A stretch of DNA of 64,000 bases from a virus. The translations under genes were made by a program, and so were the position numbers. The notes beneath the pieces are model-generated. The model was not told where the DNA came from. It did no database searches and saw only the letters and a program-made list of their open reading frames with translations. The stretch is from IMG/VR virus record IMGVR_UViG_3300035034_002581, one strand, 5' to 3'. Within the stretch, counting starts at the first letter, position 1, and each line of letters begins with the position of its first letter. Shown here one piece after another: positions 38,203 through 38,279 of the stretch.

Positions 38203-38279
38203 TGGTACCCAGCCAGAGATTCGAACTCTGATCCATGTTCTTTTGAAAAACACCGCTCTGCCAATTGGCGCAGCTGGGC
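38203..38279 (-). tRNA. Class-I tRNA with CAA anticodon (Leu codon UUG) but short variable loop; alternative register gives TCA
   Basis: Acceptor GCCCAGC/GCTGGGT, anticodon arm TGTTT-TTCAAAA-GAACA (best register), 5-nt variable loop, T-arm CAGAG-TTCGAAT-CTCTG. Confidence 0.45.

Follow-up and report, generated by a model that had tools for sequence, protein, structure and literature searches.

Genomic setting of the tRNA gene

The window, a 64-kb stretch of IMG/VR record IMGVR_UViG_3300035034_002581, had a GC content of about 40%, and every long ORF in it lay on the minus strand. Besides a tmRNA, ARAGORN and Rfam identified about 40 tRNA genes, which form an array on that same strand (Table 1). 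Within a co-oriented run of tRNA genes in this array, a class I (type I) tRNA-Leu(CAA) gene was preceded, 10 nt upstream and in the same orientation, by a class II tRNA-Leu(UAG) gene. The leucine tRNAs of the window comprised this class I CAA isoacceptor and the class II isoacceptors UAG (two genes) and GAG; no UAA isoacceptor was found within the 64-kb window. The array also holds class II bodies with Asn (GUU) and Lys (UUU) anticodons, which are odder than the gene described here.

Among the proteins predicted, a major-vault-protein-like protein shared 38-43% identity with LR756500 and LR756501, the matched proteins coming from uncultured phages of 462-735 kb. Others were encoded by a PrkA/DUF444/SpoVR gene trio and by PhoH-PIN and DnaJ genes, while tRNA repair was represented by RtcB, by an RNA ligase and by a fusion of a CCA-adding enzyme with a HAD repair domain. 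The window belongs to the genome of a huge phage that has a large module for translation and tRNA repair. When INPHARED was searched for sequences nearly identical to the tRNA cluster, the matches were all of tRNA size, and no close relative was present there. In the 40 kb around the vault-protein-like matches of LR756500 and LR756501, neither tRNA genes nor a match to the family model R1 (see below) were found, so that these genomes offered no usable synteny. IMG/VR contig 3300035698_022074 carried an identical tRNA and shared 99.0% identity over 4.9 kb, and is therefore too close to show selective constraint. A scan of positions 37300-40500 for promoters and terminators gave counts at chance level.

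Table 1. Positions of the tRNA-Leu(CAA) gene, its parts and other features of the window
Feature	Position	Strand	Evidence
Class I (type I) tRNA-Leu(CAA) gene, CCA encoded, 77 nt	38203-38279	-	ARAGORN, Rfam RF00005, R1
Anticodon CAA, positions 34-36	38243-38245	-	Rfam and R1 alignments
Anticodon loop UUCAAAA, 7 nt, with U33 and motif A36-A37-A38	38241-38247	-	Rfam and R1 alignments
Variable loop UGGAU, 5 nt, positions 44-48; U48 pairs with A15	38231-38235	-	Rfam alignment
tRNALeu-type D-arm with 9-nt loop AAUUGGCAG	38254-38270	-	Sequence, Rfam, class II comparison
Discriminator A73 followed by encoded CCA; acceptor closed by G1.U72	38203-38206	-	Sequence
Canonical class II tRNA-Leu(UAG), 84 nt	38290-38373	-	ARAGORN; Rfam, 60.6 bits
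tRNA-Lys(UUU) with D-loop AAUUGGCAGAG	29863-29938
Major-vault-protein-like protein	33631-36309
tRNA array	14359-39838	-	ARAGORN, Rfam

Structure of the tRNA-Leu(CAA) gene

Read directly from the sequence, the 5' half of the RNA consisted of GCCCAGC UG CGCC AAUUGGCAG AGCG G UGUUU UUCAAAA, and the 3' half, following the anticodon loop, of GAACA UGGAU CAGAG UUCGAAU CUCUG GCUGGGU A CCA. ARAGORN called tRNA-Leu(caa) with exactly the boundaries given in Table 1 and the anticodon at position 35, and Rfam RF00005 matched it end to end (38206-38279) at 41.8 bits, the gathering score being 29, with E-values of 1.9e-5 in a search of the whole window and 7.9e-8 in a local search. Both programs confirmed the original prediction of a class I tRNA that has anticodon CAA, a variable loop of 5 nt and a length of 74 nt without the CCA. 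That prediction had also named the anticodon arm with loop TTCAAAA as the best fold, and it is there that the covariance-model alignments, Rfam and R1, placed CAA.

The D-stem had three base pairs, C10-G25, G11-C24 and C12-G23, followed by a C13.A22 mismatch, which was the sole non-standard pair in the Rfam alignment. The D-loop, AAUUGGCAG, contained A14, A15, G18G19 and A20a. All helices were paired, and the universally conserved nucleotides U8, A14, G18G19, U33, G53, U54, U55, C56, A58 and C61 were intact. Deviations were G9, as against A9 in at least 90% of the family described below, a wobble pair U31.G39 at the bottom of the anticodon stem, and G1.U72. The generic Rfam score was among the lowest in the array. 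Folding of the single sequence gave a minimum free energy of -28.3 kcal/mol (z-score -2.2) and recovered the acceptor and T arms; this fold missed the D-stem and zipped the A/U-rich anticodon loop into an over-extended stem, and is uninformative on the register of the anticodon.

Class I tRNA-Leu genes in phages and bacteria

The gene had been singled out on the premise that all known bacterial tRNA-Leu are class II. A sensitive BLAST search of the 77-nt sequence against phage genomes returned full-length matches annotated as tRNA-Leu, namely tRNA-Leu-1 (codon UUG; 78% identity over the full length) and tRNA-Leu-2 (UUA) of KVP40, both 77 nt and annotated since 2003, tRNA-Leu(caa) of Pseudomonas phage PPSC2 (77 nt) and tRNA-Leu(caa) of Rhodococcus phage Francesca (76 nt). 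In Streptomyces coelicolor, the single LeuRS of the organism leucylates a type I tRNALeu(CAA) whose variable loop has 5 nt (Fan et al. 2019, NAR, PMC6614811). Class I tRNALeu had thus been both annotated and biochemically characterised, and the premise is contradicted further by more than 240 examples from the scans described below.

The bacterial type I tRNALeu is treated as a rarity in PMC6614811, which was the sole paper found on the bacterial case, and a 2023 review of identity elements describes tRNALeu as long-armed everywhere but in animal mitochondria (PMC9976931). No paper presenting class I tRNALeu as a general feature of phages was found in a literature search. What stood of the original prediction was therefore the departure from the textbook, in that the review gives tRNALeu a long arm; its class II premise did not stand, nor did the scaffold swap and the suppressor that it proposed (see below).

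Like the gene in the window, those of KVP40, PPSC2, Francesca and the E. coli phage OSYSP lie in phage tRNA clusters, measure 74 nt plus CCA, and have the same D-arm, A73, U48 and a leucine anticodon, although the phages are of unrelated lineages and differ in their hosts. Their stem sequences differ from those of the window gene by compensatory changes, and the G9 and the C10-G25/G11-C24 D-stem of the latter set it apart from them; the OSYSP genes have G13.A22 and the loop AAUUGGCAU. The S. coelicolor tRNA shares the CAA anticodon and the 5-nt variable loop and likewise coexists with class II tRNALeu isoacceptors, but it is chromosomal and its variable loop is ACAGC (C48), as opposed to UGGAU (U48) in the phage-borne gene.

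As a control, ARAGORN was run on 120 IMG/VR loci chosen with a generic T-arm motif as the seed, which gave 695 tRNAs. In this sample, which is small and depends on the ARAGORN calls, 17 tRNA-Leu (about 29%) were of at most 79 nt (class I) and 42 were longer (class II), the corresponding numbers being 3 and 47 for tRNA-Ser and 1 and 25 for tRNA-Tyr. SerRS and bacterial TyrRS rely on the long arm, and the difference between Leu on the one hand and Ser and Tyr on the other fits an arm that is needed by these two enzymes and not by LeuRS.

Anticodons carried by the scaffold

The window gene and the annotated phage genes shared a D-arm of the form N10 N11 C12 C13 AAUUGGCAG A22 G23 N24 N25; C12 and C13 were both present in 321 of the 389 class I Leu genes called by ARAGORN. 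A search pattern that fixed the D-loop AAUUGGCAG, the class I spacing to U33 and R37, the 5-nt variable loop and GTTCRAAT, and that left the anticodon free, was run on IMG/VR and on one genome per GTDB species, yielding at least 120 loci in each.

The matches listed in IMG/VR together with three genes from GenBank phages (two of KVP40, one of PPSC2) amounted to 125, with the anticodons TAA (40), TAG (36), CAA (32), AAG (8), GAG (5), CAG (3) and TTA (1). The lone TTA match was a tRNA-Lys(UUU) with a 4-bp D-stem, called tRNA-Lys by ARAGORN, which fits the pattern because a T run shifts its register. Among the GTDB matches listed, all 123 had leucine anticodons: TAA (52), CAA (28), TAG (24), CAG (17), GAG (1) and AAG (1). 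Thus, among the matches listed, 247 of 247 scaffold tRNAs carried leucine anticodons, all six of which were represented, and UCA was not among them. As to the setting of the 120 GTDB loci listed, the scaffold gene was solitary or one of two tRNAs within 8 kb in 54, mostly from Actinomycetota (Nocardia, Mycolicibacterium, Corynebacterium and Acidimicrobiia), and lay inside an array of at least 10 tRNAs in 41. The gene in the window is an unexceptional representative of this scaffold, which is frequent in phage tRNA arrays and on some bacterial chromosomes.

Covariation in the family and integrity of the window copy

The window gene and 111 distinct phage members were aligned in 74 gap-free columns (alignment A1). 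Discriminator A73 was present in all 112 members, and U8 and U48 in at least 90% each, none of the three being imposed by the search pattern. The standard cloverleaf paired 98.1% of the cells of A1, compared with 61% in shuffled alignments, and this value was reached by none of 500 shuffles; sliding the 3' partners by 1-3 columns lowered pairing to 32-46%. Compensatory changes occurred in all four helices. The acceptor was closed by G1.U72 in 50 of the 112 members and by G1-C72 in 52, so that G1.U72 is to be regarded as a trait of the family.

A covariance model, R1, was built from 110 members, the window sequence being excluded, and was searched with filters off. It matched the window gene end to end with 73.3 bits (E = 4.6e-21), with no gap and no flagged pair. 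The gene was the top R1 match in the window, the next being a tRNA-Gln at 61.5 bits, and its R1 score was 31 bits above that on the generic Rfam tRNA model. The low generic score is thus attributable to the unusual D-arm of the family and not to decay of this copy.

The latter point bears on whether the gene is a decaying or non-translational copy, that is, a pseudogene, or a tRNA-like RNA that serves some other end, such as a decoy for, or substrate of, host defence enzymes that target tRNAs, or the origin of tRNA fragments. Besides the low generic score, G9, U31.G39 and G1.U72 could be taken as marks of decay; several degenerate tRNA-like sequences, with weak R1 matches, and many redundant isoacceptors are present in the array, and the genes for RtcB, RNA ligase and CCA-adding enzyme suggest that tRNA damage is part of the biology of this phage. 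However, the deviations fall within the variation of the family, U.G at pair 31:39 being found in 5 of 112 members and G1.U72 in nearly half, and a sequence with its conserved tRNA nucleotides intact, its helices paired and its CCA encoded aligned to R1 without an indel. A decayed or non-translational copy is accordingly considered decidedly unlikely. Origin by recent deletion from a class II tRNA-Leu of the window was also considered and rejected, identity to these genes (62-66%) being no higher than to unrelated tRNAs of the window.

Comparison with class II tRNA-Leu and leucine identity

Class II tRNALeu, such as the adjacent gene (Table 1), resemble the class I gene in A73, the U8/A14 core, the D-loop AAUUGG(Y)AG with A20a, a 3-bp D-stem followed by a non-Watson-Crick 13.22 and leucine anticodons, and presumably are served by the same synthetase. 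Their variable region, in contrast, is a stem-loop of 13-17 nt, against 5 nt in the window gene, which thus lacks the long arm that defines the class. The core also differs: class II genes of the window and of the loci fetched followed the pattern U8 G9, N N G12 G13, AAUUGG(Y)AG, A22 C23 N N, with G12-C23, G13.A22 and G9, whereas the class I family has C12-G23, C13.A22 and usually A9. Judged from sequence, the window tRNA is best described as a tRNALeu that would have dispensed with the arm and re-tuned its core, rather than as the body of another isotype.

In E. coli, the leucine determinants are A73, A15-U48, G18G19, A20a and the contacts G18:U55, G19-C56 and U54:A58; neither the long arm nor the anticodon is required, and minimal tRNALeu without the arm or without the anticodon are still active (PMC9976931). 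The whole of this set, including A14 and T-loop residues U54, U55, C56 and A58, was present in the window tRNA. Arm-less E. coli tRNALeu constructs that accept leucine, as cited in that review from Larkin et al. 2002, provide an artificial parallel. Animal mitochondrial tRNALeu(UUR) is a natural one, like these constructs having no long arm and depending on A73, A14 and tertiary contacts of the D-loop with the T-loop, but it is structurally floppy and is charged by a dedicated mitochondrial LeuRS. In the comparisons made, neither showed homology to the class I scaffold.

The occurrence of all six leucine anticodons, and no others, on one scaffold points to a synthetase that is blind to the anticodon. 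Three synthetases ignore it, LeuRS, SerRS and AlaRS (PMC9976931), and the scaffold has neither the long arm and G73 of tRNASer nor the G3.U70 of tRNAAla, so that the enzyme here would be LeuRS.

According to the original prediction, the gene might be a scaffold-swapped isoacceptor; a class I body of another isotype provided with a CAA anticodon would be mis-acylated and insert an amino acid other than leucine at UUG. The D-loop AAUUGGCAGAG is indeed also found in some class I tRNA-Lys, Thr, Ala, Pro and Gln genes, including the tRNA-Lys(UUU) of the window (Table 1), and scaffold and anticodon are mismatched elsewhere in the array, as in the class II bodies mentioned above. Those Lys, Thr, Ala, Pro and Gln genes, however, have a 4-bp D-stem and a D-arm one nucleotide shorter, which puts them out of register in the scan, whereas the window gene has the tRNALeu layout (3-bp stem, C13.A22 and A20a) together with A73. 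Its C3-G70 is not the G3.U70 of tRNAAla, and it lacks the serine determinants; most other synthetases read the anticodon (PMC9976931) and would not tolerate six unrelated ones. Among about 2,100 collected tRNAs, a set enriched for class I Leu, 79 of the 100 nearest neighbours of the window gene were class I Leu. A swapped, mis-acylated body is therefore highly improbable: the scaffold is a dedicated one that bears leucine anticodons only, keeps the leucine identity set and shares its D-arm layout with class II tRNALeu.

Register of the anticodon

Suppressor tRNAs are carried by huge phages, and a second 7-nt loop, UUUCAAA, can be drawn one nucleotide upstream in the window gene, between stem strands GUGUU and AGAAC, because the run UUUUUCAAAAG permits a slide of 1 nt; its anticodon, UCA, would read UGA in a recoded or readthrough phage. 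This second register can be drawn on the window sequence alone. In the homologue from PPSC2, GGGGU CUCAAAA GCCCC leaves no room for a slide. ARAGORN and Rfam both chose CAA, and over the 112 family members the anticodon stem was 97.0% paired in the CAA register, with double changes at all five pairs, versus 30.0% in the UCA register, which moreover requires a 6-nt variable loop and loses position 26. The TCA register put forward earlier as an alternative is thus supported by neither program and is rejected by covariation.

Nor does the coding sequence suggest a suppressor. Standard-code ORFs tile the minus strand and cover 75% of the window, and the stops of 78 minus-strand ORFs were TAA in 37, TGA in 26 and TAG in 15. 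With 26 of the 78 ORFs ending in TGA, the 64 kb give no indication of UGA recoding. Suppressor tRNAs of recoded phages resemble the window tRNA in being phage-encoded, class I and borne on large genomes, but they have a stop anticodon (CUA, UCA or UUA) and accompany in-frame stops in genes, neither of which applies here. The suggestion of a potential opal suppressor can be dismissed almost entirely.

Proposed function

Taken together, the sequence features make it very likely that the gene encodes a functional phage tRNALeu of class I, with a body lacking the long variable arm. It is most likely charged with leucine by the host LeuRS and reads UUG. The tRNA would be co-transcribed with its neighbours from the minus-strand array and matured by host RNase P and 3' trimming, the CCA being already encoded. 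Host LeuRS would then recognise A73 and the elbow where D- and T-loops meet (A14, A15-U48, G18G19 and A20a), needing neither anticodon nor arm, and would charge the tRNA with leucine. The charged tRNA would decode UUG and so add to the tRNA pool of the host during infection; the motif A36-A37-A38 is compatible with the position-37 and position-34 modifications usual in UUR-reading tRNALeu. In 78 non-overlapping minus-strand ORFs (15,844 codons), UUG made up 16% of the leucine codons and occurred at 13.3 per 1000 codons.

Charging by a given LeuRS is not a matter of course. The type I tRNALeu(CAA) of S. coelicolor was charged in vitro neither by the E. coli nor by the S. purpurogeneiscleroticus LeuRS, and A73 was not the key determinant in the S. 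coelicolor system (PMC6614811). Since E. coli LeuRS refuses this tRNA, acceptance of a type I tRNALeu depends on the pairing of tRNA and enzyme. Phage OSYSP (T5-like, MF402939.1), which infects E. coli, has just two tRNA-Leu genes in its genome, both class I genes of 77 nt, scoring 73.8 and 61.0 bits on R1. According to a 2026 preprint that cites Nyerges et al. 2023 (PMC13596443), TCG is read as leucine in recoded E. coli by a tRNALeu(CGA) obtained from OSYSP through an anticodon swap; from that statement we infer, indirectly, that the engineered tRNA goes back to the class I genes of this phage.

Loss of the variable arm and its significance

To our knowledge, LeuRS is the only synthetase for class II tRNAs that does not need the long arm. 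An arm-less tRNALeu would therefore stay chargeable and yet escape toxins or nucleases that select class II tRNAs by the arm. MenT3 makes use of the long variable loop in tRNASer, and AbiEii seems to favour class II tRNAs (PMC11162799; bioRxiv 10.64898/2026.01.19.700257). Consistent with an adaptive loss as counter-defence, the phage control sample retained the arm in 47 of 50 tRNA-Ser and 25 of 26 tRNA-Tyr and had lost it in about 29% of tRNA-Leu, and the window encodes RtcB, RNA ligase and a CCA-adding/repair enzyme and has Leu genes of both classes, I and II, in its array. However, in many Actinomycetota the scaffold is solitary and chromosomal, which fits a tolerated deletion followed by horizontal spread. 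We consider it unlikely that the arm was lost from phage tRNALeu as an adaptation against host defence rather than by neutral simplification.

The gene in the window matters little by itself, being a further copy of a scaffold to which annotation pipelines already give the name tRNA-Leu. Short tRNA-Leu genes in phage genomes should accordingly not be flagged as anomalies or as suppressors. Class I tRNALeu are widespread, yet the 2023 identity review limits the arm-less form to animal mitochondria (PMC9976931). A single scaffold that bears the six leucine anticodons and no others demonstrates cleanly, in nature, that neither the anticodon nor the arm counts for leucine identity, and it is for this reason that phage tRNALeu are a good chassis for codon reassignment.

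Class I tRNALeu genes in bacterial chromosomes and the first acceptor pair

The class I tRNALeu scaffold, a tRNALeu body that lacks the long variable arm, was found in many Actinomycetota genomes (loci L126-L239 from the scan of one genome per GTDB species) as a solitary gene with an anticodon that was mostly UAA and with no encoded CCA; examples include loci in Corynebacterium (L139), Mycolicibacterium (L155), and Nocardia (L167). Among the GTDB matches listed, no more than two tRNAs were present within 8 kb at 54 of the 120 class I tRNALeu loci. Since the Actinomycetota genes are solitary, this tRNA looks like a normal chromosomal isoacceptor in these bacteria, beyond being a gene of mobile elements alone. 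In the alignment of the window's tRNA-Leu(CAA) with 111 distinct phage members, the first acceptor pair (window 38207/38279 in this gene) was a G1.U72 wobble in 50 of the 112 sequences and G1-C72 in 52. Such a frequency of G1.U72 is unusually high for a first acceptor pair, and the wobble may be relevant to processing or recognition.

Other tRNA-like sequences and accessory genes

Features predicted in the window are listed in the table below.

Features predicted in the window, with the evidence for each
Feature	Position (nt)	Strand	Evidence
tmRNA, phage-encoded	9071-9438	-	ARAGORN; Rfam, 119.8 bits
PrkA serine kinase, DUF444 (YeaH-like), and SpoVR (YcgB-like), adjoining genes	15921-20434	-	
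tRNA-Gly(gcc), 81 nt	30930-31010	-	ARAGORN
Class II tRNA, Asn anticodon GUU, 90 nt	31105-31194	-	Rfam, 53.7 bits; loop CUGUUAA
Class II tRNA, Lys anticodon UUU, 91 nt	33105-33195	-	Rfam, 27.5 bits, slightly below gathering score; loop CUUUUAA
892-aa protein, major-vault-protein shoulder and repeat domains	33631-36309	-	Pfam, E = 1.4e-26
tRNA or tRNA-like sequences	15646-15735, 25250-25308, 25324-25396, 28848-28916, 30028-30100, 31019-31079, 37556-37625, 39470-39554	-	Rfam, no ARAGORN call
tRNA/RNA repair and turnover genes, either side of the tRNA array	6986-8413, 41984-43225, 46674-48485, 58796-59824	-	

The tRNA-Gly(gcc) was not among the Rfam matches reaching the gathering score; its variable region of about 13 nt is unusual in a Gly tRNA. 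Weak tRNA-like matches to the class I Leu covariance model (13 to 23 bits) were observed between the annotated tRNAs, and these, together with the sequences detected by Rfam alone, may represent tRNA genes inside the array that are degenerate or unconventional. The tag peptide predicted for the tmRNA was ANNNSHFQTALAA.

The repair and turnover set encoded a PIN-PhoH protein, an RtcB ligase, a CCA-adding/poly(A) polymerase-family enzyme fused with a repair domain of the HAD 'Swiss Army Knife' type, and an RNA ligase. The PrkA/DUF444/SpoVR genes look like a phage-borne trio associated with bacterial stress or sporulation. The vault-like protein, which is unusual in a phage, matched only three uncultured phage records in INPHARED (462 to 735 kb, 38% to 43% identity).

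Class II tRNAs with Lys and Asn anticodons

The class II tRNA with anticodon UUU possessed a tRNATyr-like D-arm, UCCCGAGUUGGCCGAAGGG, and A73, with 27:43 mismatched; one homolog was observed, on a 102-kb IMG/VR contig (L374). The class II tRNA with anticodon GUU combined a D-arm resembling that of tRNASer, GGCCGAGCGGUCGAAGGC, with a long variable arm; it also had G73, and its gene encoded the CCA. Its relatives in the IMG/VR scan were five distinct sequences at seven loci on phage contigs of 19 to 395 kb, five of the seven contigs being larger than 100 kb and one being a near-identical relative of the window. All of these sequences possessed G73 and compensatory stem changes, which indicates that the GUU class II tRNAs are a conserved family. 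Charging could be carried out by AsnRS, via the anticodon and G73, or it could be carried out by SerRS, via the variable arm and G73; were SerRS the charging enzyme, Ser would be placed at Asn codons.
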